Below, one piece after another: positions 8,895 to 56,338 of a DNA stretch of 64,000 nucleotides. Source of the stretch: Candidatus Nealsonbacteria bacterium (GTDB lineage Bacteria > Patescibacteriota > Minisyncoccia > Minisyncoccales > JANBVM01). The position numbers and the translations under genes were made by a program. A model generated the notes under the pieces. The model did no database searches and had not been told where the DNA came from. It worked only from the letters and a program-made list of their open reading frames with translations. How positions within the stretch are numbered: the stretch's first letter is position 1; each line of letters starts with the position of its first letter. The stretch covers positions 431,159 through 495,158 of the forward strand of contig CP179887.1 in assembly GCA_047456295.1 (NCBI GenBank), read 5' to 3'.

Positions 8895-8945
8895 TTTACA
8901 GAAAGAAGAAATTCAAAAAACCAAACTCTTTTTTAAAAAAGTGTT

Positions 8946-9137
8946 TCATTTTTTCAATTTTAAAATTTCCTCTATTGGATAATTAGGAGATTTTCTTTTT
9001 ATCTTTTCAATGATTTTTTTCTTTTTTTCTTTGGTTTTTGCTGCCAAATATTCTTTTTTTAGCTTTTTGACTTTCTCCTTTCTTTTTCGCTTAATTTTTA
9101 TCTTAAACCGTCTCCTCTTTACAGAAATTTTGCTCAT
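8946..9137 (-). CDS. Small lysine-rich basic protein, function unknown
   Basis: 63-aa ORF, more than half K/R, tightly packed between neighbours. Confidence 0.4.
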   Translation of the reverse strand: MSKISVKRRRFKIKIKRKRKEKVKKLKKEYLAAKTKEKKKKIIEKIKRKSPNYPIEEILKLKK

Positions 9138-9171: not shown

Positions 9172-10131
9172 TTAAACATTATCTTTTATTCTTGAAAATC
9201 TAGTCAACCCAGAACAAGAAACAATTTCAATACCTCTTTTCTCAAGCTCATCTAAAAACAAATTAACGCCTAAAGAATCAGAACTCATATGTCCTGCAAT
9301 CACCACGTTTAAATTGGCAGCTTCAGCTTCTTTTTTATGCTCCTCTGAAATATGCATTCCAATAATGGTGCCGATACCTGCTATTGCCATTTTTTCGTAA
9401 AGCTTTGGTGAGCCTTCAGTCCCTCCGGTTATTTCAGTAAGGGCTATCTTACCGCAACGGTTTTCTTTATTTCCCACGAAAATCTTGGGCCCCACACCAA
9501 GCTTCATTGCCTCTTTATATTCTGGAATCTGTTCCAAAAACTCTATTAAATCCTCAAGCCTCATCAAGCCATTTTCTTTTGTAATCTTTTCTCTAAGAAA
9601 TTTTGCTGCCAGGTTGTCACAGGCAGTATGAAGACACATTAAGTTAAATCCCAACAGTTTGGCTGCATCAACCGTCCTTTGATGATTGAATCTGTTCGTT
9701 CCCCTGGCCACCTCTGAGATTCTTTCTCTCATCAAACCCTCAGCAACATTTATGGGCACTCCATACTGATTTAAAACATCGCACTGAAGCTCCATTACCT
9801 CGTGTAAATTAGCTAAAGCCTTTCCCAAAGGATGGTGAGAAATAATTAAATCAATATTGCCTATTTCTTTGGCCAATAAGATTTCAGCAGGATCAATATC
9901 AATTCCAACCAAAACCCTTTTTATCTCTTTGTCCTCTGATATATTTAAGATTCTTGAATCCAAATAAGGATTTTTTAAGGATTCTATATCAAAGTGTTTT
10001 TTCTCTTCCTCTGACATCTTTTCGTACTTTTTCTGTTTTCTTTTCAAAAAACCCTCTACCCCCTGCCTTTTCCTGAAATCAGCTTCTATTGCTTTTTGTA
10101 TTGCTATATTGTAAATCTCTTTGGTTTTCAT
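9172..10131 (-). CDS. NIF3 (Nif3/DUF34) family dinuclear-metal protein
   Basis: DLIISHHPL, LHTACDN and a C-terminal AGHMSSD segment resemble the NIF3/YbgI family. Confidence 0.6.
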   Translation of the reverse strand: MKTKEIYNIAIQKAIEADFRKRQGVEGFLKRKQKKYEKMSEEEKKHFDIESLKNPYLDSRILNISEDKEIKRVLVGIDIDPAEILLAKEIGNIDLIISHHPLGKALANLHEVMELQCDVLNQYGVPINVAEGLMRERISEVARGTNRFNHQRTVDAAKLLGFNLMCLHTACDNLAAKFLREKITKENGLMRLEDLIEFLEQIPEYKEAMKLGVGPKIFVGNKENRCGKIALTEITGGTEGSPKLYEKMAIAGIGTIIGMHISEEHKKEAEAANLNVVIAGHMSSDSLGVNLFLDELEKRGIEIVSCSGLTRFSRIKDNV

Positions 10132-29260: not shown

Positions 29261-29262
29261 TT

Positions 29263-29285
29263 AAAACCCCTTATTAAGGGGTTTT
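29263..29285. terminator. Bidirectional intrinsic terminator
   Basis: AAAACCCCTTATTAAGGGGTTTT between the convergent micro-ORF and tyrS. Confidence 0.6.
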
Positions 29286-29313
29286 AAACTTCAAGATAGT
29301 TTTTATTTGGTTT

Positions 29314-41100: not shown

Positions 41101-41933
41101 ATTTTTGTTAATTGAATTTCATTTCCATTCTTTATTAAGACTGGTTCAGATCCTAAAATTGACTTTCCTGAACCCGCCTTTCCGAATAAAACCTCATTGG
41201 CATTCTCTAAACCAAAACGGTCAAATAGAATAAGGGAATTGTTGTGTCTGTTGATACCATATAAAATCCCGTCATTAGAACTCAAATCAAAAGAAACAAA
41301 AGGAAAGGTTGAAGAAAGGGGGCCGGTATTCATTGAGGTATGGACCTGGAGCTGGTCCAAACCATAAGGAGCAGTGGAATTAAAACCTTCTCTTTGCTGG
41401 TAAAGGGAGGGTTTAATATAAATCAGTCTGGATTCCAGAATCGACCTCAGATTGGTTTCTATATCCCTTAATTCTTTAGGGGTGTTTCCATAGACGGTTA
41501 AATAAATGCCAAGCTTAAACATCCTTTCCTGGGCAGTTTGTAAGCTGTCCCTCAAAGATTCAAGGTCTTGATGGGCAACCTCTAGGACTGGATCCCTGAT
41601 CAAGCCTTTTTCTTGTCTTTCATTGATTTCAGCTATGACTTCTGCCACCTTTTTCCTTAATTTCTTTAAAATCATTCCGGTTTCAACAGGATGAATGTGT
41701 AATCCAATATTCATTGGGGTGTCCAGATTAATGATCGGAGAAAGCCAACCTGTGCTTATGTATCTGGGATAAGAGAAGATAAAAAAGGACCTAGACAATC
41801 TTTTGCCAAATTCCAAACGGTCCGGCCTCAAGGAAGTGAGAGAAGAAGGCGCAATAATGTCTTTTATCCCTATTGCCGGAGCTTCAAATATTTGTTCAGG
41901 TTTTTCTTTCTTTTTAAAAAAAGGAAATTTCAT
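38157..41933 (-). CDS. virB4: VirB4/TrbE-type T4SS ATPase, interrupted by an intein
   Basis: Walker A FGKAGSGK|S split by the intein, Walker B ILVVDEAWW, downstream TQDLNDF. The joined exteins are 593 aa. Confidence 0.85.
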   Translation of the reverse strand: MKFPFFKKKEKPEQIFEAPAIGIKDIIAPSSLTSLRPDRLEFGKRLSRSFFIFSYPRYISTGWLSPIINLDTPMNIGLHIHPVETGMILKKLRKKVAEVIAEINERQEKGLIRDPVLEVAHQDLESLRDSLQTAQERMFKLGIYLTVYGNTPKELRDIETNLRSILESRLIYIKPSLYQQREGFNSTAPYGLDQLQVHTSMNTGPLSSTFPFVSFDLSSNDGILYGINRHNNSLILFDRFGLENANEVLFGKAGSGKSILGSEPVLIKNGNEIQLTKIGSLVEGLIKKQGITKIDEELEGVIDPKIKVYSFDKNLKAKWSEVTVAARKKAPNVFYKFTTQSGRKITTTSDHNMLVLKNGKIKTAKGSEIKEGEFVPVPRQVSETDSPLKSLNLLELLRYSKGIYVAGGEYLIEENYEALKKANLDKNLHRYLYKYRVGRRIPIQYFWKILDYLKIKPNDPKFKNLKVVSKNGKKQYSLNIDFQITSGFLKIAGLITAEGTIREDVIIISNEDKEVLKEIDSSFSELKIPFYYDNRGIITSSRVFIEIVKALGGKGKSKQKKVWPFIFNLEKQKIAQYLSAYFEGDGGTEANAYISAVSKSKRLISEISYLLYFFGIIARTSKTKKKIPSWKHKKTYWKLTISGQDNLRKFAQDINFISKRKRDQLSEIIKKTGNTNVDIVPTLETIFKEIHDLFGPQLYGITEISEWKRGVRRPSPQHLLKVINKIEQRIQYFEDLTSTFRVLTELPELSTIINLGKNDKELNRDLWQALGHSWQVVKNREVNPFCCNAFRLIETVNGQSYSLKKIKETIHLGFKEMAIPMKNYNSSLRSALVTKPEGNTSYKTIQKSAQFIWQNYQDVLVNKIPQVEEKLAQLKILANSDLFWDPIVKIKKIRNKNNKYVYDLTVDNEVFLAGTAGMFVHNSYAIKLDILRSLMTGVEVIVLDPENEYKHLSDAVGGSFFNISLASQSHINPFDLPTPREDEKPEDVLRSNIINLVGLLRIMLGGLTPEEDAIIDRALAETYAAKDITPETDPSTWRERIPLMEDLESVLEGMEGAESLVRRVRKFTKGTFAQFFNHPTNISMDKPFVVFGIRDIEDELRAMAMFIIMRYIWNEVRSELKKRILVVDEAWWIMQNEDGASFLFGICKRARKYWLGVTTITQDLNDFMKSNYGQPIITNSSLQVLMKQSTATIDAVQKAFNLTDEEKYLLLEAEVGEGMFFAGQKHVAMKVVASYTEDQIITTSPEEVLRIKKAKEAG
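39168..41162 (-). mobile_element. Intein with LAGLIDADG homing endonuclease, in the VirB4 P-loop
   Basis: 665 aa. Ser1 (codon 41162..41160) begins SILGSEPVLIKNG. Block B is TTTSDHNML. LAGLIDADG-like motifs are LKIAGLITAEGTI and LSAYFEGDGG. It ends GMFVHN|S (Asn 39170..39168, +1 Ser 39167..39165). Confidence 0.85.
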
Positions 41934-43548: not shown

Positions 43549-43630
43549 AATTTTAAAGTTTTTATATTATTTAAATTGATAATGAGGGATGAATACTATA
43601 ATGTTCTAGGCACACACCTTTGTCGGTTTT

Positions 43631-43840
43631 TTAAATAATGTAATTATTTAGTAATTGTACCATTTCATTTGGTGTTTTCCCATTTAAGACACAATACTCT
43701 AGAATCCTTCGTTTTTAATAATTTTATCAATAGTTCTTGTTTTAATCAAGATAGCTTGTTTTTCTAGCCTCCAATAGAGTTTAATGGTAGTTATGTTCTC
43801 TGGACAGGATTAGCCTGTCCAAACTTCTTTTATATGCCAT
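43631..43840 (-). pseudogene. Internally deleted relic of an IS481/IS3-like transposase gene
   Basis: Own translation: starts MAY (ATG 43840..43838), as in the 54962 copy, and ends EYCVLNGKTPNEMVQLLNNYII* (43699..43631), typical of an rve-integrase C-terminus. Stops and deletions lie in between. Confidence 0.45.
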
Positions 43841-43902
43841 ATACATATATTCTAACACTAGGGTAGTGCAAAGGTATTGAACCATAACAATTGCTTGACA
43901 AA
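43801..43902. repeat. Shared hairpin plus 71-nt left-end repeat with outward TTGACA (copy 1)
   Basis: Hairpin TGGACAGG-attag-CCTGTCCA at 43801..43821. 43832..43902 matches the reverse complement of 54900..54970 with 6 mismatches in 71 nt (hand alignment). TTGACA at 43895..43900 faces the gene at 43963. Confidence 0.65.
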
Positions 43903-43962
43903 GAAAAATAGTGTCATAGGATAAGCATAGAATTTAATATTAATAATAGGGAGTGAAATAAA

Positions 43963-44763
43963 ATGATTATTAGTAATGAAAAAGAAATTCAAGCTTTAGA
44001 AGAGGGTGGAATGAGTAACAAAGAATTAGAATACTGGAGGCAGTATTCAGAATTTATGATGAGCAAATATCGAGATGCCTACATTAACAGCCCTTATTTT
44101 CAAGAAGAACTCAGGGCAATTAATGAATTCATGGAACCAAAGGAGAAAGAAAGATGGTTAGACCTGGGATGCGGAGCACTGCCTGTTTCAGAACTCCTAC
44201 TAACCAAAAAGGTAGATTTGGAACTTTGGGCAGGAGATATTATTCTTGCACCAGCTGAAAAAAAGATTGAAGAGCTAGGAAATCCTCCGGTAAAGTTATT
44301 CTACATTGATTTGACAAAAAAACTAAAGATTCCAGATAACTTTTTTGACGGGATTGGAGCAAGTAAAGTTTTGCCCTATATACCAGAATCCCAAGGAGAA
44401 AAAGGAAAAGAGGCCTTAAGACAAATTTTTAAAGAATTATTCAGAATCTTAAAGCCAGGCGGAACATTAGTATGGAGTGGTTCAATAAAAAATGTCAGTA
44501 GATTTCGGGGAACCTTGCTGGCATTAGGATATATATTGAATCCTTACCAATGGATCAAACAGAGGTGCTTCTTACCAGTTTTTGCAGCAAAAGTAAACGA
44601 AGTTTTCAAACCAATGGTTGAGAAGATAAAAGAGGGCACATATCCTGTGCTTTCCCAAGAGGAGAACGAAGATATTATCCTTTCGGTTGGCTTTGAAAAT
44701 CCAGAGTGGAGGCTAACTTTCGGAAAACAAGTTGTAGTTAATAAAGTTACCAAACCCCTCTAA
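43963..44763 (+). CDS. Class I SAM-dependent methyltransferase (cargo gene)
   Basis: WLDLGCGALP motif I and LKPGGTLVWS. Looks like a small-molecule/protein MTase, not a DNA MTase. Confidence 0.7.
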   Translation: MIISNEKEIQALEEGGMSNKELEYWRQYSEFMMSKYRDAYINSPYFQEELRAINEFMEPKEKERWLDLGCGALPVSELLLTKKVDLELWAGDIILAPAEKKIEELGNPPVKLFYIDLTKKLKIPDNFFDGIGASKVLPYIPESQGEKGKEALRQIFKELFRILKPGGTLVWSGSIKNVSRFRGTLLALGYILNPYQWIKQRCFLPVFAAKVNEVFKPMVEKIKEGTYPVLSQEENEDIILSVGFENPEWRLTFGKQVVVNKVTKPL

Positions 44764-44834
44764 TATTTAATTGTTTAGTCTTTAGAAAAATGATAAAATT
44801 TGATAATTGATTCTAAAGACTTTTTTTATTACTC

Positions 44835-46478
44835 ATGGACATTCTTGCTTACTCAGGGTTCATAAATAGTTTCCTGGTGTTGGCTATAGGAGTTTTCGTC
44901 TATCTAAAAAGCAAGAGAGAGTTAAAAAATAAGCTTTTCTTTTTGCTTTGTTTTTCAGTGTTCATCTGGCAGGCCAGCTACGGTTTCTGGCAGATGGCCA
45001 AAAGCGAAGAGGAAAGCTTGTTTTTTCTTAGATTCATAACAATTAGCAGTGTTTTTTCCTCGGTCCTTTTCCTCCACCTCGTTTTAAGTATTCTGAGTAT
45101 AGTAAAGGAAAAAAAGCCACTCCTGCAGTGGGCTTATATAATCACTTTTGTAATTATTTCTTTAGTTTTTACTCCCTTTTATATCTCTGGTTTAAGAGAA
45201 TATCCTTTTTATCAGTATTGGCCGGTTGCAGGTTTTTCCACTCATGTGAATATAATTTGGGGATTGGTTTTGTCGGTTAGTGCCTTCAATCTACTAATAA
45301 AGAGATATAAAGAATCAAAAGGAGAGAGTAAAAATCAAATAGCTTATTTCCTTTTAGCCCTTTTCGTACTTTTTATTGGAGGGCTTTTTAACGTCCCACA
45401 ATGGTATGGGGTTCCGCTTTTCCCCTACGGTAATTTTTTGATTTTCCTATATCCCTTAATAATTGCTTTTGCAATCATCAGATATCATCTCTTTGAGATT
45501 AGAGTTATTTTAACTGAAATCTTGGTATTGATAATGGGTTTTGTACTGCTGATACTTCCATTCATTATGACAACGAGCTTTTTAAGAAATTTGACTATTA
45601 CCATCTTTATATCCTTTGTATTTTTAGGTTACTTACTAATTAGAAGTACACATCAGGAGGTTCAGAAAAGAAAGGAGGCAGAAGAATTAGCCAATAAACT
45701 CCAAAAAGCAAGCAGTGAGCTTCGAAAGGCCTATATTGAATTAAAAAAAGCTTCAGAAAATATCAAAGAACTATCCGAGATGAAGACAGAGTTTCTGAAG
45801 GTGGTAAACCATCAGTTAAGAACACCTGTTTCCATAATCAAAGGTATGTCTTCCATGTTAGTTGAGGGAACCCTAACAAAGAAAAAGCAAAAAGAGTATG
45901 TTAAAAAACTCTATCTTTCTTCTGAGAGACTGCACACTATCTTAGATGATATTTTAGTAGCTCAGAACTTGGCAGGAGGTCCTACCAGCGTTGAATTAAG
46001 GCCATGTAAGATAGAGGAGGTTATTGAAAGACTAGTTAATCACCAGAAATCTATAGCTGAAGTTAAGGGTTTGAAAATATCGTTCAGTAAACCAAAAGAA
46101 AACATTCCAATAGCCCTACTCGATGAAGAAATAATAAATAGAATAATATCTCGTTTAATTGATAATGCCATACTATATACAGATAAAGGGAAGATTGAGA
46201 TTTCTCTTGAATTAAAAGAAGAAAAGACTAAAAAATTCATCCAGATATCAGTTAAAGACTCAGGTATTGGCCTGGACAAAAAAGACAAAAAGAATCTCTT
46301 TAGACTCTTCCATAGAGGGGAAAAAGCTACCTCTTTACACCCCAATGGCTCAGGTTTAGGACTCTTTATTGTTAAAAACCTGATAGAATCCCATAAGGGT
46401 ACAGTTAAAGCTGAAAGTAAAGGCAGAGATAAGGGTAGTACCTTTGTTATTAGCTTGCCTTTTTTGACGGAAGTTTGA
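44835..46478 (+). CDS. Membrane sensor histidine kinase with N-terminal multi-TM domain, no cognate regulator nearby
   Basis: About 7-8 TM helices, coiled coil, H-box LKVVNHQLRTP, N box IDNAILYT, DSGIGL, GSGLGL. Confidence 0.85.
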   Translation: MDILAYSGFINSFLVLAIGVFVYLKSKRELKNKLFFLLCFSVFIWQASYGFWQMAKSEEESLFFLRFITISSVFSSVLFLHLVLSILSIVKEKKPLLQWAYIITFVIISLVFTPFYISGLREYPFYQYWPVAGFSTHVNIIWGLVLSVSAFNLLIKRYKESKGESKNQIAYFLLALFVLFIGGLFNVPQWYGVPLFPYGNFLIFLYPLIIAFAIIRYHLFEIRVILTEILVLIMGFVLLILPFIMTTSFLRNLTITIFISFVFLGYLLIRSTHQEVQKRKEAEELANKLQKASSELRKAYIELKKASENIKELSEMKTEFLKVVNHQLRTPVSIIKGMSSMLVEGTLTKKKQKEYVKKLYLSSERLHTILDDILVAQNLAGGPTSVELRPCKIEEVIERLVNHQKSIAEVKGLKISFSKPKENIPIALLDEEIINRIISRLIDNAILYTDKGKIEISLELKEEKTKKFIQISVKDSGIGLDKKDKKNLFRLFHRGEKATSLHPNGSGLGLFIVKNLIESHKGTVKAESKGRDKGSTFVISLPFLTEV

Positions 46479-46506
46479 TAATAACTACTCATTTCCTAAA
46501 AATAAT

Positions 46507-46536
46507 ACCTAATTTATTAGGTTTTTTGGCTTGACA
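46507..46536 (+). promoter_or_regulatory. Terminator hairpin of the kinase gene, immediately followed by a GCTTGACAAA promoter box
   Basis: ACCTAA-ttta-TTAGGT plus T-run (46507..46527), then TTGACA at 46531..46536 in the same GCTTGACAAA context as at 43893 and 48103. Confidence 0.5.
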
Positions 46537-46667
46537 AACTTTTCAGAAGGTCTTATGAAGAAAGTAGTAGGTAATATATTAATAATTATAGAAAGGAGGT
46601 TTTTAAAATTAAAAAGTGGGACAAGAAACTTCAGAAAGCAAATACCGCAAAGAAAATTATAAAGATC

Positions 46668-47633
46668 ATGATAAACGCACCGGAAGAATATAAAGATAAG
46701 GCTTGGCAACGACTTCTAAAACAAAAACTTGATTTTCCTTCTCTTGCTAAGATAATTAAGGAAGCACCAAAGGTATACAAAGATAAAATATGGCAGGCGG
46801 TTCTAAAACATAAACCTTGCTATGCCACTTTTGCACGGGACTTTATATCGAAACACGCTAATATTCCCATAGAATACAGAATTGAAGGTTGGAAGAACCT
46901 TGTCAAAGAGTGGGATGAATTTGATATTAGATTTATTGTTGATTTGAATTATCTTACAGAAAAATTCTGGGAAGAACTTCTGAAACAAAAACTCAACACA
47001 GATGAAATGTATGAGATAATTAGATGTGCTCCAGAAAAACACAAGAAAGAAGCTTGGGAGCGATTCTTAAAACTAGAAGCATACGATTGTAAACCCTGTC
47101 TGATAATGATGTGTAGGCATTCTTTAACAAGCAGTCACAGCATAGGATTTCCCGAAAACTATAAAATAAAAGTTTGGGAGGAGTTTCTAAAAAGAAAACC
47201 TGGTAACGATGAACTTTTTTTAGTTATAAAGAAAGCTCCAGAAAAGTACTACAGAACAAGGGCGTGGGAAGAACTCAGAAAGGGAACATTTATACCTAAT
47301 GATATCTGTATTAAAATTCTAAATAGAGGCGCTCCAAAATATAAATATGATTCTTATGGTGTTAAAGAAATTCTAAGTAGAGGCATTCCAATAAAATACA
47401 AAGATGAAGTTTGGGCACAGTTCTTAAAACAAAACCCCAGCAATTACGAACTTTTTTTAGTAATTGAAAAAGCTTCAGAAGAGTGTTACAAACTAAAAGC
47501 CTGGGATAAATTTTTAGAACAAAATCCCGATAGCAATGATTTAAACCTGGTAATTACCTTTGCTCCAGAGGAGTATAGTAAAAAAGCTCAAGAAGTTTTA
47601 AATAAAGTTTTAAAAAAAGAAATATATATCTAA
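46668..47633 (+). CDS. Novel alpha-helical tandem-repeat protein (about 30-aa APExYKxKAWxxFLKQxP units)
   Basis: About 10 repeats visible by eye. The C-terminal third is paralogous to 55129..56139. The reading frame is open from 46575, and the repeat pattern continues upstream of the ATG (see findings). Confidence 0.6.
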   Translation: MINAPEEYKDKAWQRLLKQKLDFPSLAKIIKEAPKVYKDKIWQAVLKHKPCYATFARDFISKHANIPIEYRIEGWKNLVKEWDEFDIRFIVDLNYLTEKFWEELLKQKLNTDEMYEIIRCAPEKHKKEAWERFLKLEAYDCKPCLIMMCRHSLTSSHSIGFPENYKIKVWEEFLKRKPGNDELFLVIKKAPEKYYRTRAWEELRKGTFIPNDICIKILNRGAPKYKYDSYGVKEILSRGIPIKYKDEVWAQFLKQNPSNYELFLVIEKASEECYKLKAWDKFLEQNPDSNDLNLVITFAPEEYSKKAQEVLNKVLKKEIYI

Positions 47634-47661
47634 GGGATAGTTTATAACTATCCATTTTTTT
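47634..47661 (+). terminator. Intrinsic terminator (shared with paralog at 55101..55127)
   Basis: GGGATAG-tttataa-CTATCC plus T-run. Confidence 0.6.
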
Positions 47662-47705
47662 ATTTCTGATCTAATTACAATGATTCTTCTGATTTTCAAG
47701 GAAAG
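47652..47705. repeat. Cassette end motif, copy A
   Basis: Contains ATCTAATTACAATGAT (47669..47684), identical to the reverse complement of 54075..54090. Similarity extends about 55 nt (..CTTCTG..TTT.AAGGAAAG). Confidence 0.65.
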
Positions 47706-47719
47706 CGCTGGGATTTTTA

Positions 47720-48049
47720 GCCACCCAAAAATTCGAAGTGGGAAGCCTTAATGCTTTCTCTTTTAAGAAGGATGGTTAATATATCAGGATTTAACTGTAT
47801 CTTATGTTTTAGTTTCCTTATTTTTCAACCAACTATTAAGGATATTCATTGGGATAGTGATGAAACCCTATTAATACAGGTATCAATCCCTGTATTCCTT
47901 TTTTCCATGTATGTAGACACCCATCTTTTTAAGGTACGATAAAAGAATGAAGGAATCTTAGCTATGTTTCTCAATGACTCTTTGCCTTCAAGGATAGGTT
48001 TAATCCATCAATATTTCTCTTCTTGGATTAAATTGGGCATAGTTTTCAT
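47720..48049 (-). pseudogene. N-terminal relic of an IS481/IS3-like transposase (HTH region)
   Basis: Own translation from ATG 48049: MKTMPNLIQEEKY*WIKPILEGKESLRNIAKIPSFFYRTLKRWVSTYMEKRNTG.., with an in-frame TGA and later frameshifts (..GLIPVLIGFHHYPNEYP.., ..LNPDILTILLKRE..). No catalytic domain follows. Confidence 0.5.
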
Positions 48050-48065
48050 ATGCCCTTAGATTATC

Positions 48066-48112
48066 AGAAAAGTGCAAAAAGTGTGTATACATTGACACAT
48101 GGGCTTGACAAA
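48066..48112 (+). promoter_or_regulatory. Diverged copy of the left-end/outward promoter module
   Basis: AGTGCAAAAAGTGT...GGGCTTGACAAA with TTGACA at 48105..48110, a 17-nt spacer and TGgTACTAT. It drives the gene at 48177. Confidence 0.5.
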
Positions 48113-48176
48113 TTAGAAACAAAGTGGTACTATTACATTACATTAAAAATTAAATATAACTAAAGGAGGAAAAAAA

Positions 48177-48524
48177 ATGACAGACCTTGCTGATTTATTA
48201 AAAGTAATAAAAGAAAAAAAAGAAAGTAAAGAATTTAAAAAACTCAAAAAAGATGTTGAAAAAGAACAGACTGCAATGGTATTAGAGTTATTGGTTAATT
48301 ATAAAATATTCGAGAGATTGGGGAAAGAATTCGACGACGCGATAGAAGAATTAGATAAGGAAAGACAAAAAGACACTTTGGACTTAGCAAAAATCAAAGC
48401 CGCAAAGACAAAATTAAAGACAGCTGAAAAAAAATACAAGGAAGACAAGAAAAAATGGCTATCGGAAAAAGAATTAGTTCGGATGAAATTGAAAAAAAGA
48501 AGTCATAGAAGAAAGTTAAAGTAA
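48177..48524 (+). CDS. Lys/Glu-rich coiled-coil protein, paralogous to the middle of 55129..56139
   Basis: AMVLELLVNYKIFERLGKEFD...KKWLSEKELVRMKLKKRS aligns with AMVTKLIAHYEISENLGKELD...RNWLLEKNLVRTRLKLKS. Strong SD AAGGAGG. Confidence 0.45.
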   Translation: MTDLADLLKVIKEKKESKEFKKLKKDVEKEQTAMVLELLVNYKIFERLGKEFDDAIEELDKERQKDTLDLAKIKAAKTKLKTAEKKYKEDKKKWLSEKELVRMKLKKRSHRRKLK

Positions 48525-48611
48525 AGGCTTAAAAATTTTTATTTTGCTTAATATAAATTTTTTTAGCCGTTTTTTTTTGTATGTGAAAACTTATTCTTCT
48601 TCTTCTTCAGA

Positions 48612-51203
48612 TTATCCTCCTTTAAGTTCTTCTAATAGACTTTCTACTGCTTTTTCGTCTTTTGTTAATTTCCATTTATCGATACCTCTTCGAGCCTTTG
48701 TAAGATTTAATTTATAATCCTCTATATCTTTTTGGATTTCTTTAGACGTTTCTGTATTAATCTCTTTTATTCTTTTTTCTCTTTTCTCAATCCTTTGCCT
48801 TATTACCCCTTTTTCCACCGGTAAGACCGCTTTCAACTCCTCTTTACTTAGAACCTCTATTTGTTTTTCTAATTTACGTCTTTCTCTAATAATTTCCCTG
48901 AATTCTTTTATTTGTTTATTAATATGAGAAATAAATTCTTTTCCTTGTTTTCTAAGTGTTCTTACTTTTTTTGTTCCTCTTTTTCTCTTTATCTCAGGTA
49001 AAGGAGCTGGAGATTCTGTTAATTCTCTTATTTCCTTTTCCATTGTAGATAGTGGTGTTGTACCTTTTGTCCCTTTATAACCCCATTGTTTTCCCGCAGG
49101 ACTGGTATCAAAGTAGCGGACTAAACGAGGATTTATTTTTTTAAGTTCTTCTTCTCCAATACTGTTTATTCCTCCTGTTCCTTCAAAGAAATCATCGGTT
49201 GTTTCTTTATCAAAACTATCTCTAACTTTAGCTAAATGTCCAGAAGTCCAGTTACGGCTTCCCCTTCTAACTGCTAAGGATTTTAAAGATGAAGCACTCA
49301 TTTCTGCTACTTTTGCCGGCTTGAGTTTACCAACATGAATTGAGGAAGCAGCAATATTTTTAAGGTCTTTTTCAAGAAATTGCTTTCTTATATCATCAGT
49401 AATATCTTCTATATTTATCTTATATTTAATCTTAATTTCTTCCTCTATTCCTTCATCGCCTAACATATCAATCATTTCTTTTCTCGCTTCCTCTATTTTG
49501 TTTTTCGTTTCCTCTTTTTTATCCTTTGGTGCAAGACCTATTATTACCTCTTCAGTCATCATATCAGGAAGGGCATTTGCTATTTCTCCAACATGTTTTT
49601 TAGCATAATCTTTGTTAACTGTTCCTTCGGCATCCCCGATTATTTTATTCTTGAATTTTTCATCAGTTTTAGCGAGTTCTCCCTCTTTTGCCATATAAGA
49701 TGCATGGGCGACCCTGCCCCGCTTTCCAAGGGTTCCCATATATAATTGTTTATTTTCAAGACTCATTTCCTTAAAATCATCTGACACACCCATCACCCTC
49801 TTTTGAGCCCTGGCTTGATATTTTAAAAGGGGAGCAACGGTTAATTTTTTAAAGCCTTTAAGAGGCACCCTTGATAATCCTTTAGCGGCAACTCCTGCTA
49901 AACCGCCTGCTGCCATACCTAGTCCACCGGTAGCAACGCCAAGACCTATCTTTGCCATCGTCTTTGGCAGGTCTTGTACTCCTTGGATTACTGCGCGAGC
50001 TGCTTCAGGAGCAGAATCCTTACTTAATTTCCACCCAATAATAAGTACAGAAAGACCAATAACAGGATCAATAAGGTCTTCAAGAAGCCCTGAGAGATAC
50101 TTAATATCATTATCCAGAAGAGCAGCTTGGGCATCTTCTTGGGTAGCACCACTATCTATTTCCGCAAACTTCTCAGGTGCTTTGAATATTGCAGGCTCTG
50201 ATTTTGCCATCATATAACTTGAAAGGAAAATGAAGAAAGAAAGAGGTATTGCAACAATTACCCACCGGATGAGTTCTTCCCACCAATTGTCCCAGTTAAG
50301 AATGCCTGGAAACAATAATTTGACTTTTGAGCCTGAGGGGAAAATATAAGAGAGAAAGGCAATGGGAGCAAATATCATTAAAATCCAGAGCCATACGATT
50401 CTCAATATGAATATATAGGCTACTGCCAGATAAACAACAGAAGAATATGCAAGGAAAATAAGCCCTATAACTCCGTAAGCTACAAAGGCAGCAAGCTGGA
50501 ATACTAGAGCTGCAATTACCTCACCCATATCAAAAAAATCCGTACCCCCTGGCATCGCTAACCAAATCCTTGCAAGAACTACCATCATTTCAGTCCATAT
50601 TTTCGTTGAAACATTTATAGCCGAAGATCCTAAAGTCCCCATAAAACCTTGGTAGAAAAAATTTGTTACAATGTTTCCAATATCAACAATAAAGCCAACG
50701 ATTACAGGGGTGAAATTTACTAAAATAGCAATAATAATAAGTTTTGGTAGGGCTTTTTTTGCTTCATAATCTTTTATTCTCAAGATAGTAGCTAAACCAA
50801 TAAAAACTAATACAAGTATAAAAAACATGTTAACCAAGCCGCTTGTAAACTCCCAACCCACAGTAACTAATGAATCAGGGCCCAATGCACTTGGGGTCAC
50901 TCCCACAGATAACGATATTTCAGCGAGATGTTCGAGTATGAGCGCTATGATTATATAAAGAACTCCGGCTGCGAACGACATAAAGAAAATGGGCAACATT
51001 GTGAGAAATACAATAAGCCTGATAGGAACAGTGACAAGGTAGGTTATAATCTTTCCAATAAGGCACCATAGATCAAGTCCACAACCCCACACAGCCTTAG
51101 TAGTCTGTAAAGGTAAAAGAGATAGGAATAATGCGATTCCTAAGGCCAAGAACAGAACTCTTTTGTTTTGAGAAAGTATTTTACTCATAGAACCAAATCT
51201 CAT
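48612..51203 (-). CDS. VirB6/TrbL-like polytopic membrane protein with large C-terminal cytoplasmic domain
   Basis: 863 aa. About 9-10 TM helices in the first 400 aa or so, a Gly-rich segment, and a long charged coiled-coil tail. Adjacent to the other T4SS-like genes. Assigned from architecture only. Confidence 0.45.
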   Translation of the reverse strand: MRFGSMSKILSQNKRVLFLALGIALFLSLLPLQTTKAVWGCGLDLWCLIGKIITYLVTVPIRLIVFLTMLPIFFMSFAAGVLYIIIALILEHLAEISLSVGVTPSALGPDSLVTVGWEFTSGLVNMFFILVLVFIGLATILRIKDYEAKKALPKLIIIAILVNFTPVIVGFIVDIGNIVTNFFYQGFMGTLGSSAINVSTKIWTEMMVVLARIWLAMPGGTDFFDMGEVIAALVFQLAAFVAYGVIGLIFLAYSSVVYLAVAYIFILRIVWLWILMIFAPIAFLSYIFPSGSKVKLLFPGILNWDNWWEELIRWVIVAIPLSFFIFLSSYMMAKSEPAIFKAPEKFAEIDSGATQEDAQAALLDNDIKYLSGLLEDLIDPVIGLSVLIIGWKLSKDSAPEAARAVIQGVQDLPKTMAKIGLGVATGGLGMAAGGLAGVAAKGLSRVPLKGFKKLTVAPLLKYQARAQKRVMGVSDDFKEMSLENKQLYMGTLGKRGRVAHASYMAKEGELAKTDEKFKNKIIGDAEGTVNKDYAKKHVGEIANALPDMMTEEVIIGLAPKDKKEETKNKIEEARKEMIDMLGDEGIEEEIKIKYKINIEDITDDIRKQFLEKDLKNIAASSIHVGKLKPAKVAEMSASSLKSLAVRRGSRNWTSGHLAKVRDSFDKETTDDFFEGTGGINSIGEEELKKINPRLVRYFDTSPAGKQWGYKGTKGTTPLSTMEKEIRELTESPAPLPEIKRKRGTKKVRTLRKQGKEFISHINKQIKEFREIIRERRKLEKQIEVLSKEELKAVLPVEKGVIRQRIEKREKRIKEINTETSKEIQKDIEDYKLNLTKARRGIDKWKLTKDEKAVESLLEELKGG

Positions 51204-51234
51204 AATAATATATTATATTATAATACCACAAAAC

Positions 51235-53154
51235 TTAAAAGGTAATTGTCCACCATTTTTCTGTAAAGCCCAAGACCCTTAAGATGGTGTTTATAATGGT
51301 CCAGGCAAGAAAGATGATTGCGTATCCCTGTCCAGCTGATTTCCAGATTGACCTTATATTAATCACAGTACCAGGAGCTCCCATTGAAAAATAAGAAACC
51401 ACAAAGGTTGCTATTGTTAATATTACCAAAGCAATCAATCCAATTCTCCATAAAATAAAGTCAAGTATGTTCTTAAAAAGCAAGAAAACATGTTTGAATT
51501 GACAGGGTTCTCTTTCATTCCAGGGAGTCTTTGGATTGTCTGAACTTCTGCCGCAGGGAACCAGACCGAATTGACCTGGTGGTACAGGCTGGACATAGGT
51601 AAAGCTCCAGGGAGATTCTCTCCACATTCCTGCTTCTTCACAATCTTTATCAAGACAGGCTCTCACCCACCAGTTATAGTCTCCCAAACAAGAAAGAGAT
51701 ACAAAATCAGAATTAGAAGAAACAATGGTGAGTTGAATTGCTGCTTGGCCTGCTATGCAATTTTGATCATCTTCTTCCGGAGATTTTAAGGCATAATCAA
51801 TCTTATACTGATAGAACTTTGCTCCTAGAACTGAATTCCAGGAAACACGGTTTTCATAGGTATAAAAAGTACCCCCATTATCAGGAGAAGGATTGGAAGG
51901 GATATTAAGGGTAAAGGTTGTAAAACTCTCTGGACTGCTCCAATCCCCGCACACCTCACCTGTTGCATCACCACAGATTCTGACCCGAAACCAATATTGG
52001 GTATCTTGAATTAAAGTAGGGTAATCCACAGAAACTTCTGAGCTCCCAACAATCCCACTATCCACAATTTTATCATCAGCAAAAGAGCTCTCAGAACAAA
52101 CCTGATAATTGTAGGATGCTGCTCCCACCACATCATTCCAATCAAAATTAACCGGGATTATTTCATTATCAATATTTATGTCACCCGAGATTGCACCAGT
52201 GGTTTTAAAAAACCAGGTTTCACCAAAATCACTACAGCTAATACCATCTTCTCTTAAACAAGATTTAACATGCCAGCCGTATTTTGTATCAGTCTCTAAA
52301 AAGCTCCAAACATCAGCAAGAGGAGCTTCATAAGAAGTAGTGAGAATGGGTCCAATAATTATTGTATCATTCTTTTTAATCTCATAGAGAAAAGAACGGG
52401 CCCAATAAGTTTCTTCTTCAGGTCCAATCCATTCTAAAGAATCAAACAGGCTTACTACTGGAACTTTTTCTGGTGGACCTGGATCATAGAAAGGATTGAT
52501 GAGTTCTGGTGGCGTGATTTCCTTTTCCTCGGTGGTAAAGCTCCATCTGGGACTGAAATCTGCGCAATCTACAGCTGATTCTTCGTTTCCGCAACTTAAT
52601 CCACAACTGGTCAAATCTTCATTAGAGCAGGCTGCAATCTCCCATTGGTATGTTGTTGTTGCAGCAAAAACCCAGAGATAACCAATGTCAAACTCTATCC
52701 TGGACTCAAGACTGCCGAACGTATGATAAACCCCTCCCCCTTTTAAAATCCGACCATAATAAGACTGAGCGTTGCCAACATCGCACCAGTCAAGAGAAAC
52801 AGGAATTGGAACATTAACAGCTTCATTTTCAGGAGACAGAAGTCCGTCTATACAAATTTCACACTTGTTGCGATCGTCAGCTGGCAGCCAGTCACCAAAA
52901 GAAGTAAAACCTGTACAATCAGCGCCATTGCTACTGCAATATTTGGTTGCTTCCCTTTTTACAGCACTTCCTTGTTCATCACATTTGTATTCTGTCCAGG
53001 CATCACATACATAGTTTGATGGTCTAAACTCGGTAGGCGAAACCGAGGTGTCGCAGCAAGGACCAGAACTACATGCATCTTGGGCAAGAACCTGACTTTT
53101 ACAAAAAAGAAATAAAAAAGAAAAGATTAGAATAAATTTAAATAATTTTCTCAT
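51235..53154 (-). CDS. Secreted Cys-rich repeat adhesin with pilin-like C-terminal two-helix membrane domain
   Basis: Signal peptide and a Cys-rich head. Four roughly 100-aa FN3-like modules each end W.F(T/K)T. The C-terminus (PCGR...CQFKHVFLLF...two hydrophobic helices) mirrors the 37721 pilin architecture. Confidence 0.5.
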   Translation of the reverse strand: MRKLFKFILIFSFLFLFCKSQVLAQDACSSGPCCDTSVSPTEFRPSNYVCDAWTEYKCDEQGSAVKREATKYCSSNGADCTGFTSFGDWLPADDRNKCEICIDGLLSPENEAVNVPIPVSLDWCDVGNAQSYYGRILKGGGVYHTFGSLESRIEFDIGYLWVFAATTTYQWEIAACSNEDLTSCGLSCGNEESAVDCADFSPRWSFTTEEKEITPPELINPFYDPGPPEKVPVVSLFDSLEWIGPEEETYWARSFLYEIKKNDTIIIGPILTTSYEAPLADVWSFLETDTKYGWHVKSCLREDGISCSDFGETWFFKTTGAISGDINIDNEIIPVNFDWNDVVGAASYNYQVCSESSFADDKIVDSGIVGSSEVSVDYPTLIQDTQYWFRVRICGDATGEVCGDWSSPESFTTFTLNIPSNPSPDNGGTFYTYENRVSWNSVLGAKFYQYKIDYALKSPEEDDQNCIAGQAAIQLTIVSSNSDFVSLSCLGDYNWWVRACLDKDCEEAGMWRESPWSFTYVQPVPPGQFGLVPCGRSSDNPKTPWNEREPCQFKHVFLLFKNILDFILWRIGLIALVILTIATFVVSYFSMGAPGTVINIRSIWKSAGQGYAIIFLAWTIINTILRVLGFTEKWWTITF

Positions 53155-53156
53155 TA

Positions 53157-53978
53157 TTAAATCTTAAAACTTTTTGTTAATTTAAGCCAGTCTTTAACAT
53201 CCAGGGTTTCTGCTCTTTGGCTGGGTTGAAACCCATTTTTTAAAAGCCAATCCTTAACCTCTTTTTTATCCATTTTTAATTTCTTTGATAAATTATTCAC
53301 CAGTTGTTTCCTCGGCTGGGAAAAGCCAGCCTTAACGATTTCAAAGAATTGTTTAGTTAGTTTATTTGAGACTTTAAGTTTTTTGGGAACTATTTTAATA
53401 ATGGCTGAATCAACTTTTGGTTCAGGCCAAAAGGATTTTTTGGAAACAAAAGAAATAATCTTGGGTTCAGCGTAAAACTGGACAGAAACAGCCAGAAGAT
53501 TCATTCTTGTAAAACTGCAGATTCTTTTTGCAACCTCTCTTTGAACCATTAAAATGATTTCCTTTGGCTGGTTTTTCATTTCCAGAAACCCTCTTATCAA
53601 AGGAGAGGTTAAATAATAAGGAATATTAGCTACAATTTTATATGGTTTTGAGGCATAAAGTTCAGGTTCTAATCTTAAAATGTCTCCTTCAATAATCTCA
53701 ACATTCTTGATATTCTGAGAAGTCAACACTTCTTTTAAGATTCCACACATTTTTTTATCTTTTTCTATTGCCATAACCTTCTTTGCTTTTCTTGCCAATT
53801 CCAGTGTCAGGTTTCCAATCCCAGAACCTATTTCCAGGACAATGTCATTTTTTGAAAGACGAGCTGTTTTAATTATTTTTTTTAATACCATGTTATCAAT
53901 TAAAAAGTTTTGCCCTAATCTTTTCAAAGGATAAACACCATGTTTTCTCAACAGTTTTTTCACAGTTTTTACATCCAT
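53157..53978 (-). CDS. rsmA: 16S rRNA (adenine1518/1519-N6)-dimethyltransferase
   Basis: LGQNFLID, EIGSGIGNLT, NIPYYLTSP. Confidence 0.9.
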   Translation of the reverse strand: MDVKTVKKLLRKHGVYPLKRLGQNFLIDNMVLKKIIKTARLSKNDIVLEIGSGIGNLTLELARKAKKVMAIEKDKKMCGILKEVLTSQNIKNVEIIEGDILRLEPELYASKPYKIVANIPYYLTSPLIRGFLEMKNQPKEIILMVQREVAKRICSFTRMNLLAVSVQFYAEPKIISFVSKKSFWPEPKVDSAIIKIVPKKLKVSNKLTKQFFEIVKAGFSQPRKQLVNNLSKKLKMDKKEVKDWLLKNGFQPSQRAETLDVKDWLKLTKSFKI

Positions 53979-54052
53979 GTTTTATTTTAACACAAAAACA
54001 AAATATATCCTGTTTGATTAACATGACCATCTTTTAATAACAAGCCCTAATC

Positions 54053-54109
54053 CTTTCCTTAAAAGAACAGAAGGATCATTGTAATTAGATTAAAAATAAA
54101 AAAAATTGG
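54053..54109. repeat. Cassette end motif, copy B (inverted relative to 47652..47705)
   Basis: ATCATTGTAATTAGAT at 54075..54090 is the reverse complement of the copy A core. Flanks are similar. Confidence 0.65.
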
Positions 54110-54122
54110 TGCTAGGCACCAA
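54098..54122 (-). terminator. Intrinsic terminator of the zinc-ribbon gene
   Basis: TTGGTGC-cta-GCACCAA followed by a T-run on the minus strand. Confidence 0.6.
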
Positions 54123-54152
54123 AAGAATATTTTTGTTTTAATTTAACTATTT

Positions 54153-54827
54153 TTAAACAGGAGTTTCCTTTAATTCTTTTACACGGTCTTCGACATTTAT
54201 TCCACAGAAAGGACAAAACGAGACTATTGATGTTAATTGTACTCCACAAGAGGGACAATAGAATTCACTTGCCTTTTCCTTAACTTGTGCAACCTTCGCG
54301 AGCTTCTCTTTTAATTCCTCAATTGTTTTTTTAGCTTCCTTTTCTACCTCTCTTTTAGCTTGTTCAATTTTTATTAGTTTCTCTTTTAAATCACTGATTG
54401 TTTTTCTAGTCTTTTTTCCTAGTTTCTCCTCTAATTTCTCTTCGGGTTTCCCCTTGGGCTTTATCTGTGTAATAGTGAATTGAATATGCTCATTTAACTT
54501 ATCTGTTGTTTTGTAAATAAGCCAATTACTTTTAATTCTATATTGAACCTTCCATTCTTTTTCCTCTTGACCATCAACTGCGGTTGACAAGATACCTTTT
54601 CTAAAACTACCACGATCATCCTCTATTACTACTCCCGCTTTACATTTTTTGCAAATCAATGATAAATAAATATAACGAGAAAAAACCCACGTTAGGCCAT
54701 TATTATTAACTCTAAATTTATTAGCTTTTATTTCTCCTCCACAACATTCATTATGAAACATTCTTAAATTTCTAAATTTTGTTTTCTTATACCCTTTTCT
54801 TTCTTCTACATTAATCGTAAAATCCAT
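54153..54827 (-). CDS. Zinc-ribbon / coiled-coil protein, function unknown (cargo gene)
   Basis: 224 aa. N-terminal Cys cluster (HNECCGG...CKKCKAG), central K/E coiled coil with a duplicated KEKL..I..A segment, and C-terminal CPSCG...CPFCG ribbon. Confidence 0.45.
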   Translation of the reverse strand: MDFTINVEERKGYKKTKFRNLRMFHNECCGGEIKANKFRVNNNGLTWVFSRYIYLSLICKKCKAGVVIEDDRGSFRKGILSTAVDGQEEKEWKVQYRIKSNWLIYKTTDKLNEHIQFTITQIKPKGKPEEKLEEKLGKKTRKTISDLKEKLIKIEQAKREVEKEAKKTIEELKEKLAKVAQVKEKASEFYCPSCGVQLTSIVSFCPFCGINVEDRVKELKETPV

Positions 54828-54899
54828 TTTTTTAAAACCTCCATTTGTTTTTATTTAATTGTAAATTTAATCTATCTCTTTCTACCTCATTTTTCCCAT

Positions 54900-54970
54900 T
54901 TTGTCAAACATATGTTATGATTCAATACCTTCGCACTACCCTAGTGTTAAAATATATGTATATGGCATAT
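54900..54970. repeat. 71-nt left-end repeat with outward TTGACA (copy 2)
   Basis: Reverse complement matches 43832..43902. TTGACA (complement of 54902..54907) faces the gene at 54827. Confidence 0.65.
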
Positions 54971-55057
54971 ACAAACAATCCAAAGCTTCCACAAGTAAGA
55001 ATGGAAGCTGTAAGACTTCTTCAAAAAGGTTGGTCAACATTCCCTACTAGAGTCTGA
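54962..55057 (+). pseudogene. 5' fragment of an IS481-like transposase gene
   Basis: MAYTNNPKLPQVRMEAVRLLQKGWSTFPTRV*. The N-terminal pattern (NP.LP.VR.EAV.L...GWS) matches IS481-type HTH N-termini as I recall them. It is truncated after 31 codons and followed by the hairpin 55068..55088. Confidence 0.5.
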
Positions 55058-55100
55058 ACAGGCTACCTGGACAGGCTAAGCCTGTCCAAAGAACAAAAAT

Positions 55101-55127
55101 AAAAAAAGGGATAGTTATAAGCTATCC
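55101..55127 (-). terminator. Intrinsic terminator (paralog of 47634..47661)
   Basis: GGATAG-cttataa-CTATCCC plus a T-run on the minus strand. Confidence 0.6.
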
Positions 55128-55128
55128 T

Positions 55129-56139
55129 TTAAATATAATACTTTCTTTTATTCAAAACTTTCAGAGCTTCTTTTCTATATTCTTCTGAAGCAAAGGTAAT
55201 CACCAGATTTAAATCATTGCCATCAGGGTTTTGTTCTAAAAATTTACTCCAAGCTTTTCTTTTGTACCCTTCTGGAATTTTCTCTTTCTCAATTGCTAAA
55301 AAAAGTTCGTAATTACTGGGGTTTTGCCTTAAGAACTTTTCCCACGCTTTTTCTTTGACTTCTTCTGGAGCTTTTTCTATTACTAAGAAAATTTCATAGG
55401 TAGTAAATGCTTGTTTTAAATGTTTTTTCCACTCGATGATTTTTCCCGGTTTTTCAAGTTTCCCTTTTTCTTCCCAAAGTTTGACCCAACGGCGATTTAA
55501 TTTAAGTATTCTTATTAATGCTTTATGAGGTAGTGTTCCTTCAGATTGCACTGATTTTAACTTCAGTCTCGTCCGAACTAAATTTTTTTCCAATAGCCAA
55601 TTTCTTTCTGCTTTCTCGTATTTTTCTTCAGATTCCTTTAAATCTTCTTCTGCTTTTTTTATTCCTTCTAAGTTTAAGGTGCCTTTTTCTATTCCCCTAA
55701 TTATTTTTTCCATCTTCCTGTCGAGTTCTTTCCCCAAGTTCTCTGATATTTCATAATGAGCTATTAATTTTGTTACCATTGCAACCCGCTCTTTCTTTTT
55801 AAGTTCTTTAAATGCTTCCGGGGCATCTCTTATAATTTCCATAATTTCCTCTGGAGTATTTGTTCTCTGAAGTTTTTTATCCCAGCCTTTAATTCTTGAT
55901 CTAATTTTTAACCCCCACTTTTTTCTTTTTGGTCTTCCTCCTTCTCCAGCCTTCTCTAACCAAGAATCAAGAACAACAATAGTTAAAGGGATACTTACTA
56001 TGAAGTCAATAACAATCCAGATAATCGCGTATAGTCCCGGTCCCAAAAAAGCGCTAGGTATAGAAAGTATAGAAAAAATGAAAGAGAATACAAAAAACCC
56101 TCCAATAACCAAACCAATAACATCACCAACTTTACCCAT
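55129..56139 (-). CDS. Membrane-anchored fusion paralog: 2 TM + coiled coil (48177-like) + helical repeats (46668-like)
   Basis: N-terminal two hydrophobic helices. The middle aligns with the 48177 protein. The C-terminus shares the runs QNPSNYELFL, KFLEQNPD and NDLNLVITFA with the 46668 protein. Confidence 0.5.
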   Translation of the reverse strand: MGKVGDVIGLVIGGFFVFSFIFSILSIPSAFLGPGLYAIIWIVIDFIVSIPLTIVVLDSWLEKAGEGGRPKRKKWGLKIRSRIKGWDKKLQRTNTPEEIMEIIRDAPEAFKELKKKERVAMVTKLIAHYEISENLGKELDRKMEKIIRGIEKGTLNLEGIKKAEEDLKESEEKYEKAERNWLLEKNLVRTRLKLKSVQSEGTLPHKALIRILKLNRRWVKLWEEKGKLEKPGKIIEWKKHLKQAFTTYEIFLVIEKAPEEVKEKAWEKFLRQNPSNYELFLAIEKEKIPEGYKRKAWSKFLEQNPDGNDLNLVITFASEEYRKEALKVLNKRKYYI

Positions 56140-56338
56140 CTTTTAAGATACCTCCAAGATATTTTATTTTTAATGTAATTTTATTCTATTTGTCTTCTAT
56201 CACCTCTTTGAATTTTTGTCAAAAGCCTTCAATTACTTTACAAAGCTAAGAGTGGTCAATATCTATCTGAATCTGGACATCGCTGATTTAAGACTTGACA
56301 ATTCTATTCAGTATTAGAAAATAGAAGAATAAGGAAAG

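Follow-up and report, generated by a model that had tools for sequence, protein, structure and literature searches.

Introduction

Yeast Ty3 docks at RNA polymerase III (Pol III) promoters, and the insertion sequence (IS) IS481 itself targets NCTAGN. Site-specific docking at a host motif is also documented for the IS1202 subgroup, at XerCD sites (bioRxiv 10.1101/2022.12.17.520857), and for ISPpu9, in REP sequences (PMC12288879). Ends of the form TG...CA are a signature of IS481 and IS3, and 6 bp is the majority length of target duplications in the IS481 family (PMC10045372). IS elements that carry an outward -35 hexamer in their end create hybrid promoters (reviewed in PMC9330008). Here we analyse IS481-like relics, and the genes around them, in a 64-kb stretch of the genome of a Candidatus Nealsonbacteria bacterium (contig CP179887.1), hereafter the window; all coordinates are positions in this window, and module copy counts cover it.

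The host belongs to the Candidate Phyla Radiation (CPR/Patescibacteria) and has a tiny genome (689 kb), and the window is low in GC (~35%). An earlier note on this DNA had read two units of common layout, A and B, as members of a family of promoter-bearing gene cassettes, or as a decayed cargo transposon, and could match them to no described element type. Every sequence feature on which that reading was built is present where it was placed, and the repeats are real, but a new cassette type is not supported, and the interpretation as a whole finds partial support. The account that we regard as quite probable is that the region consists of three decayed IS481-like insertions combined with duplication and recombination of a fast-evolving gene family.

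Results and discussion

IS481-like relics at the repeated modules

Units A and B share a 75-nt repeat (43828-43902 vs 54974-54900, 91% identity; extended blastn match, E = 4e-24), a ATGGCATAT start encoding MAY (43840 on the minus strand, 54962 on the plus strand), and a hairpin of the form TGGACAGG-N5-CCTGTCCA at 43801-43821 and 55068-55088 (a 24-nt repeat, 92% identity; fold energies -14.5 and -16 kcal/mol). Neither blastn nor nhmmer found a further copy of any module elsewhere in the window. The 71-75-nt repeat and the MAY relic together are the left end and 5' untranslated region (UTR) of an IS481-like element of ~1 kb, of which two lineages, here called R-type and C-type, have left the following relics.

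43624-43889, minus: IS_A, internally deleted R-type IS481-like relic (nhmmer, weak C-terminal matches)
54913-55101, plus: R(B), 5' fragment of an R-type IS481-like element (nhmmer, HMM, tblastn)
47739-48097, minus: IS_C, pseudogene of a second IS481-like lineage (tblastn, DNA match to contig L016)

R(B) retains the left terminus (54913), the 5' UTR, the ATG (54962) and ~36 codons, followed by the hairpin piece (55068-55088), and lacks a right end. It is matched by nhmmer at 54899-55033 (E = 1e-20), by the protein hidden Markov model (HMM) in six-frame translation (E = 4e-10, profile positions 1-28) and, in tblastn, by 115 of 120 intact family members at 54956-55036 (best E = 2e-11, 89% identity). 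The nhmmer profile, built from four intact IS copies, also matches IS_A at 43901-43825 (E = 2.5e-15, model positions 7-84), and the left ends of the two R-type relics are 90.6% identical. The MAY relics are thus the starts of transposase genes, as had been proposed. Both IS_A and R(B) lack the catalytic DDE domain, and Pfam found no match in the raw relic translations.

IS_A retains its left terminus (TGTTATGG..., ending at 43889), the 5' UTR, the ATG at 43840 and the hairpin, as well as a C-terminal fragment, with a probable right terminus near 43624 that was placed by eye. A weak but colinear nhmmer match at 43714-43659 (model positions 890-940, E = 4.7) and the peptide LNGKTPNEMVQ, which aligns weakly to transposase HMM positions 281-292, suggest an internally deleted copy that kept its C-terminal end. 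The part of this relic beyond the hairpin was also considered as a helix-turn-helix (HTH) region, which was ruled out, its best match being the transposase C-terminus. The hairpin peptide KRSLDRLILSREH aligns weakly to HMM positions 110-122 (KRTLxRxGLxKKR), and the hairpin may accordingly represent a remnant of transposase codons ~110-122. Since intact IS copies have no hairpin at that site, it would be a derived feature of the lineage that gave rise to both window relics.

The third module, at 47.72-48.11 kb, is likewise a transposase relic. What survives of IS_C is a left terminus, the 5' UTR and some 105 codons from the start of the gene (the HTH region), interrupted by three in-frame stops; the DDE domain is missing. 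It is matched at 48046-47738 by P0128 (orfA of L016; 44% identity over 103 aa, E = 2e-22), the HTH open reading frame (ORF) of a split IS481-like transposase, and its DNA is colinear with positions 41-422 of the L016 IS (E = 3e-26). The frameshift-corrected translation matches the NCBIfam IS481 model (E = 1e-6) and P0128 (E = 4e-26). IS_C shows no DNA similarity to the R-type copies and thus represents a second IS481-like lineage, cut off before the DDE domain. Both lineages of the window also stand side by side elsewhere: in contigs L024 (1440-1547) and L027 the C-type left end begins 9 nt beyond the right terminus of an R-type IS, and the C-type start there closely resembles, by eye, window positions 48090-48020 (reverse complement).

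Intact relatives and classification of the element

Units A and B and a close relative, L002, agree without exception over part of the repeat, and a pattern drawn from this part was used to scan metagenome contigs. The scan matched the metagenome contig L012, in which a homologue of the 75-nt repeat precedes an intact 300-aa transposase (MAYSKNPHLPRVRMQAV..., ORF beginning MAYSKNPHLPRVRMQAVLLVRQGWS...) with the same MAY start. More than 7,500 proteins of ~290-300 aa, each with HTH_23 and rve domains, are homologous to this transposase; transposase length in the family is 289-300 aa. Most members lie on ~1-kb contigs, many of 940-1100 bp, as expected of a repeat that breaks assemblies. A search of viral contigs with the transposase gave no match.

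The intact relatives L012 and P0043 have IS481 as their best NCBIfam model (166-173 bits, positions 2-283 of 284), while the IS3 model scores 99-110 bits. These IS481 scores lie below the NCBI trusted cut-off of 224, which marks the lineage as divergent. The termini were defined from the P0043 transposase, which occurs unchanged at at least four different sites: the sequence common to its copies is confined to the interval from CGTAATGGTTCAATAGC... through ...GCTATTGACTAGAAAACG, and three contigs start exactly at the left boundary. The left terminus reads (T/C)GTAATGGTTCAATAGC and the right terminus GCTATTGAYTAGAAAAC(A/G), with TGTTATGG/TGTTATGA in the window copies; these are imperfect inverted repeats with TGT/CGT...ACA/ACG ends, as in IS481. 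From terminus to terminus the IS in L014 measures ~960 bp, in agreement with the IS481-family length of ~1 kb. The target duplication is probably 6 bp.

The window elements, which the earlier note could not match to any described type, are therefore a decayed, divergent IS481-like lineage of a known kind, by best NCBIfam match, TGT...ACA termini and length. As in the IS481 family, their intact relatives are ~1 kb long, have imperfect TGT...ACA inverted repeats and encode one transposase in which an N-terminal HTH accompanies the rve catalytic domain. The lineage differs in its score (173 vs 224 bits), in the short transposase, in a left terminus lying 4-7 nt upstream of a -35 hexamer, and in that the window copies are dead fragments. 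Compared with a miniature inverted-repeat transposable element (MITE), IS_A may retain both termini (the right one by eye) and R(B) lacks the right one, with two copies in 64 kb.

An extended -10 (TGnTAAAAT or TGTTAGAAT) lies ~8-12 nt before the transposase ATG in L012, L013, L023 and the window (43845-43870 and 54935-54960), with no Shine-Dalgarno sequence at the start. Because this putative IS promoter is so near the ATG, the transposase mRNA would be leaderless or nearly so.

Position of the left ends relative to native promoters

Each window relic has its left terminus a few nucleotides from a promoter of the neighbouring gene; a further promoter, of the 336-aa gene, has no adjoining IS.

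43895-43922, plus: promoter of the methyltransferase operon; TTGACA (43895-43900), 16 nt, TAGGAT; 5 nt outside the left terminus of IS_A
From 48105, plus: promoter of the 115-aa gene; TTGACA (48105-48110), 17 nt, TACTAT, with an upstream TG; 7 nt outside the terminus of IS_C
54907-54902 (-35) and 54884-54879 (-10, TAGAAA), minus: promoter of the zinc-ribbon gene, placed by alignment of promoters; 5 nt from the R(B) terminus at 54913
56222-56194, minus: promoter of the 336-aa gene; TTGACA (56222-56217), 17 nt, TAGAAG

The outward TTGACA, which had been assigned to the repeat, is the native -35 of the neighbouring gene and lies in the flank of the IS. In the IS-free zinc-ribbon promoters of the relatives L003, L007 and L008, TTTGACAAAA is invariant and keeps the same spacing from the -10. 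Among the P0043 copies, the 4-7 nt between the left boundary and TGTCAA vary from site to site, and the IS right end has no TTGACA. An IS carrying TTGACA as a terminal hexamer that replaces the host -35 was rejected on these grounds: the spacer varies among identical copies, the right end lacks the hexamer, and IS-free promoters possess it. The promoter at ~56.22 kb, formerly listed as a fourth of the same design, simply has the TTGACA-17-TAGAAx arrangement common to the other promoters examined; its design (TTGACAAAA...GGTAGAAx) recurs in promoters of relatives. That the IS left ends abut native promoters accounts for the likeness of unit A, unit B and the third module on their promoter side.

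The position is stereotyped, and intact relatives elsewhere show it as well. All 11 independent R-type sites have a TTGACA 4-7 nt beyond the left end of the IS, exact at nine of them and with one mismatch at the other two, against a background, at up to one mismatch, of 2.5% of window positions. A -10-like hexamer follows 16-17 nt further on at eight of the nine sites with enough flank (TATAAT twice, TACAAT twice, TATATT, TATACT, TAGGAT and TAGAAA). Seven of these nine sites satisfy the stricter pattern of a TTGACA-like hexamer plus TAnnnT at 16-18 nt, which TAGAAA fails and which has a background of 0.22%. Wherever gene calls exist, the neighbouring gene is divergent from the transposase gene; in L013, the single site without a -10, no neighbour is divergent. 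A promoter, TTGACA-17-TATAAT, likewise adjoins the C-type copy in L016. A comparison of P_C with P_D as an empty site was set aside, the alignment being ambiguous.

The narrow 4-7 nt range favours a choice of target by the transposase rather than survival of harmless insertions alone as the putative cause of this adjacency. We consider the chances about even that this widespread lineage is a promoter-docking transposon, which would insert into the ~6 bp directly before a consensus sigma-70 -35, its transposase gene always directed away from it. It was seen on small-genome CPR contigs and on uncharacterised metagenome contigs. We found no report of such -35-adjacent IS targeting in the searchable literature, which is not proof of novelty. 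As in hybrid-promoter IS, TTGACA stands at the boundary of IS and flank, with a -10 17 nt further on and ahead of a neighbouring gene; the difference is that the -35 here belongs to the target, as IS-free orthologues have it and the bases between terminus and TTGACA vary. Like the IS1202 subgroup, ISPpu9 and Ty3, the lineage takes up a stereotyped position and orientation at a short host sequence or functional site; its motif would be the sigma-70 -35 hexamer, and selection could contribute to the pattern.

Paralogous genes and the end motif

The genes around the relics, in order along the window, are as follows.

38157-41933, minus: VirB4-like protein, 1258 aa
Next after the VirB4-like gene: TraC-like protein, 212 aa
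After the TraC-like gene: PrgI-like protein, 136 aa
43129-43548, minus: 139-aa gene
43963-44763, plus: S-adenosylmethionine (SAM) methyltransferase (Pfam)
44835-46478, plus: histidine kinase with seven transmembrane segments (7TM; Pfam)
46668-47633, plus: 321-aa repeat protein
48177-48524, plus: 115-aa coiled-coil gene
After the 115-aa gene, minus: a run of an 863-aa VirB6-like membrane protein, a 639-aa protein and KsgA
54153-54827, minus: zinc-ribbon protein, 224 aa
55129-56139, minus: 336-aa transmembrane (TM)/coiled-coil/repeat protein
Beyond the 336-aa gene, plus: LysM-M23 peptidase

A homology among the 321-, 115- and 336-aa genes, larger than the repeats described before, had been overlooked. 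In blastn, 47387-47672 matches 55369-55090 (78% identity), which corresponds to the 3' end and terminator of the 321-aa and 336-aa genes; 48143-48493 matches 55911-55562 (67%), the 115-aa gene resembling the middle of the 336-aa gene; and 46607-46696 matches 55894-55805. The last of these matches covers the 61 nt upstream of the 321-aa ATG, which correspond to codons ~82-112 inside the 336-aa gene, and the 321-aa gene is therefore a 5'-truncated paralogue. It is probably co-transcribed with the methyltransferase and kinase genes.

Terminator-like hairpins lie at 47635-47653 (plus), 54122-54106 (minus) and 55127-55109 (minus), and two of them are followed by a shared end motif.

47635-47722, plus: terminator and end motif of unit A; hairpin 47635-47653, T-run, motif 47655-47722 (terminator scan)
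54104-54038, minus: second copy of the end motif, preceded by the zinc-ribbon terminator (54122-54106)

The two copies are 88% identical over 42 nt (47655-47696 vs 54104-54063), and the similarity extends to 47722/54038 at 78.9% identity over ~68 nt. A 16-mer of the motif, ATCTAATTACAATGAT, occurs exactly twice in the window, a count that chance alone could give, whereas the longer blastn alignment exceeds chance (E = 7e-12). In L002 the second copy is 94% conserved. The motif had been taken for the end of an element, and it was tried as an IS right end, which found no statistical support: local alignments to seven IS right ends are no better than shuffled controls (z < 1.5), and neither nhmmer nor blastn matches it to either IS lineage. 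The identity between units is 78.9% for the motif vs 77.7% for the adjacent gene 3' end and terminator and 90.6% for the IS ends. As the motif diverges like the paralogous gene end beside it, the simplest reading is that 47387-47722 forms one paralogous segment, in which the end motif would be the flank of the 321/336-aa duplication. Of the four terminators in the region, only two precede the motif, which forms no structured palindrome; after the 336-aa gene it is missing.

In L003, from another Nealsonbacteria lineage, a 74-nt direct repeat (9822-9895 and 10699-10772, 86% identical) follows a variable upstream gene with DUF4325 and the zinc-ribbon gene, and L008 has a single copy at 1176-1256; it occupies an analogous place, and its sequence is unrelated to the window end motif, whose homology to it found no support. 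Also rejected was unit B as an insertion with a 19-nt direct repeat (TTTTTTTATTTTTGTTCT / TTTTTTTTATTTTTAATCT): TTTTTTTAT follows all seven terminators compared, in the window and four related contigs, and GTTCT is internal to the IS. Integron gene cassettes are similar in being single genes with a conserved 3' element and in having variable content at a fixed slot; here, in contrast, no attC-like site is common to all units, and the promoters belong to the genes themselves. Among the ORFs of 100 aa or more at 38-62 kb, ten of which were compared with Pfam, we noticed no integron integrase.

Some further observations concern the genes and the window at large. The VirB4-like ATPase has the Walker A sequence GKAGSGKS followed by a ~580-aa insertion that ends in ...FVHNS, the protein resuming at YAIKLD; read from the translation, this insertion looks like an intein in the P-loop. 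An Rfam search of 43-57 kb gave only sub-threshold, chance-level matches. Among them is the lysM-TM7 RNA at 46453-46598 (plus), in the spacer between the kinase and 321-aa genes, which scores 27 bits vs a gathering score of 61.5 over the full model length and is probably a chance match, though the motif is a CPR one. Self-BLAST found two palindromes outside the region studied, at 8909-8960 (52 nt, 85% self-complementarity) and 29261-29287 (27 nt, 96%).

Zinc-ribbon gene, unit A block and variable slots

The zinc-ribbon protein (identical to NCBI protein ACKKMR_02665) had been considered cargo. Its homologues (38-85% identity) occupy the same DksA/M23-peptidase/KsgA/T4SS neighbourhood (T4SS, type IV secretion system) in five related lineages (L002, L003-L006, L007, L008 and L009-L011), and the gene is therefore an ancestral resident rather than an import.

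The methyltransferase/kinase/321-aa block behaves differently. In L003 the order is KsgA, a 213-aa gene, a T4SS pilin, a 1022-aa gene, a 126-aa gene (minus), a 153-aa gene, PrgI, TraC-like and VirB4; the block is absent from this T4SS-like locus, its place being taken only by the small 126-aa opposite-strand gene, and is therefore lineage-specific.

L002 matches the window at 94-96% DNA identity on either side of the 336-aa gene, but in place of this gene and its promoter it has an unrelated gene, which encodes a 169-aa multi-TM protein and has a TTGACA promoter of its own (L002 1607-2216 vs window 55130-56281). The swap extends from just past the promoter of the M23 gene to the stop codon, and the terminator hairpin GGATAGnTTATAACTATCC is common to both. 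The same slot holds a DUF4325 gene in L003 and is empty in L008-L010. Two sites are thus hotspots for genes and IS debris: the 336-aa slot, and the slot between the VirB6-like and 139-aa genes.

Weighing of alternative explanations

Under the account that we prefer, the relics stem from two R-type insertions (43624-43889, minus; 54913-55101, plus) and one C-type insertion (47739-48097, minus) that later decayed, all losing the DDE domain. Each has its left, transposase-proximal terminus 5-7 nt upstream of the -35 of a divergent gene (the 115-aa gene, the zinc-ribbon gene or the methyltransferase operon), as do intact relatives. The 336/321/115-aa family would have been duplicated and recombined; common to its members are the 3' end, the terminator and the ~70 nt that follow it (the end motif), and the B copy of this segment would have been split into 55369-55090 and 54104-54038 by the IS relic and the zinc-ribbon gene. 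Some observations weigh against this account. Weak matches underlie both the placing of the right terminus in IS_A and the assignment of the hairpin to codons 110-122; there are only two or three copies of each module in the window; the candidate target-site duplication, TGCCTG, comes from one unverified contig pairing (left spacer of L023/L024/L027, right flank of L029); the end motif lies 16 nt from the truncation point of IS_C, oriented as the right end of that element; and IS relics bracket the methyltransferase block in direct orientation, as in a composite transposon. The last two invite explanations of their own. If the end motif were the right end of a C-type IS (last codons plus inverted repeat), the units would be genes held between C-type right and R-type left ends. 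By eye the motif resembles the ...ATTGA-TTAGA... of intact right ends, and it is on the expected strand; yet the shuffled controls, the nhmmer and blastn searches and a divergence equal to that of the adjacent paralogous gene end all speak against it, and we consider this explanation unlikely.

Somewhat less likely still is that unit A alone is a decayed composite transposon, in which IS_C and IS_A, both on the minus strand, once carried the methyltransferase/kinase/321-aa block into the divergent promoter region that separates the 115-aa gene from the 139-aa gene. In its favour, the block is missing at the syntenic position of L003, where the 126-aa gene stands alone between the VirB6-like gene and the 153-aa gene, two IS481-like relics in direct orientation enclose the block, and R-type and C-type IS are adjacent in L024 and L027. 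A composite transposon has the same IS on both sides and a target duplication, but the two relics are of different lineages with dissimilar ends and no DNA similarity. No target-site duplication or other direct repeat is seen at 43624 and 48097, nor is a target-site duplication visible around the window relics in general; no IS lies on the 3' side of unit B. The 321-aa gene, moreover, is a paralogue of local genes, and the GC content of the block matches the surrounding DNA. As for mobile cassettes or a cargo transposon running from hairpin to end motif, with an outward promoter of its own and variable cargo, the identical module order in both units, the 74-nt direct repeat flanking the zinc-ribbon gene in L003 and the swap of the neighbouring 336-aa slot in L002 would fit. 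We nonetheless find this very improbable: the zinc-ribbon gene keeps its neighbourhood and native promoter in all relatives, TTGACA is flank and not element, the 5' module is nothing more than the end of an IS, the divergence of the end motif is that of a paralogous flank, and no further module copies exist in the window. Pattern scans of public collections returned no second unit, four of the five being empty and the fifth finding only the intact IS of L012. Exact scans of genome, metagenome and viral collections with the first 75-nt pattern and with the hairpin gave no match; the source genome and L002 are evidently absent from these collections.

Implications

What appeared to be a new cassette system at a CPR T4SS-like locus turns out to be IS debris together with reshuffled paralogues, and variation in this streamlined genome concentrates in a few slots. 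Docking of an IS 4-7 nt upstream of a -35, the one result here out of the ordinary, for which the basis is 11 sites, offers a simple, testable hypothesis of site-specific, low-damage transposition. If it is true, docking would leave the core of the host promoter intact and set the leaderless extended -10 promoter of the IS back-to-back with a strong host promoter. If targeting is active, via TTGACA or via RNA polymerase/sigma bound at the promoter, bacteria would have in it a counterpart to the promoter targeting of Ty3. The insertion habit of the lineage could also mark promoters in uncultivated bacteria, and such docking would explain how an IS persists in genomes with almost no spare DNA.

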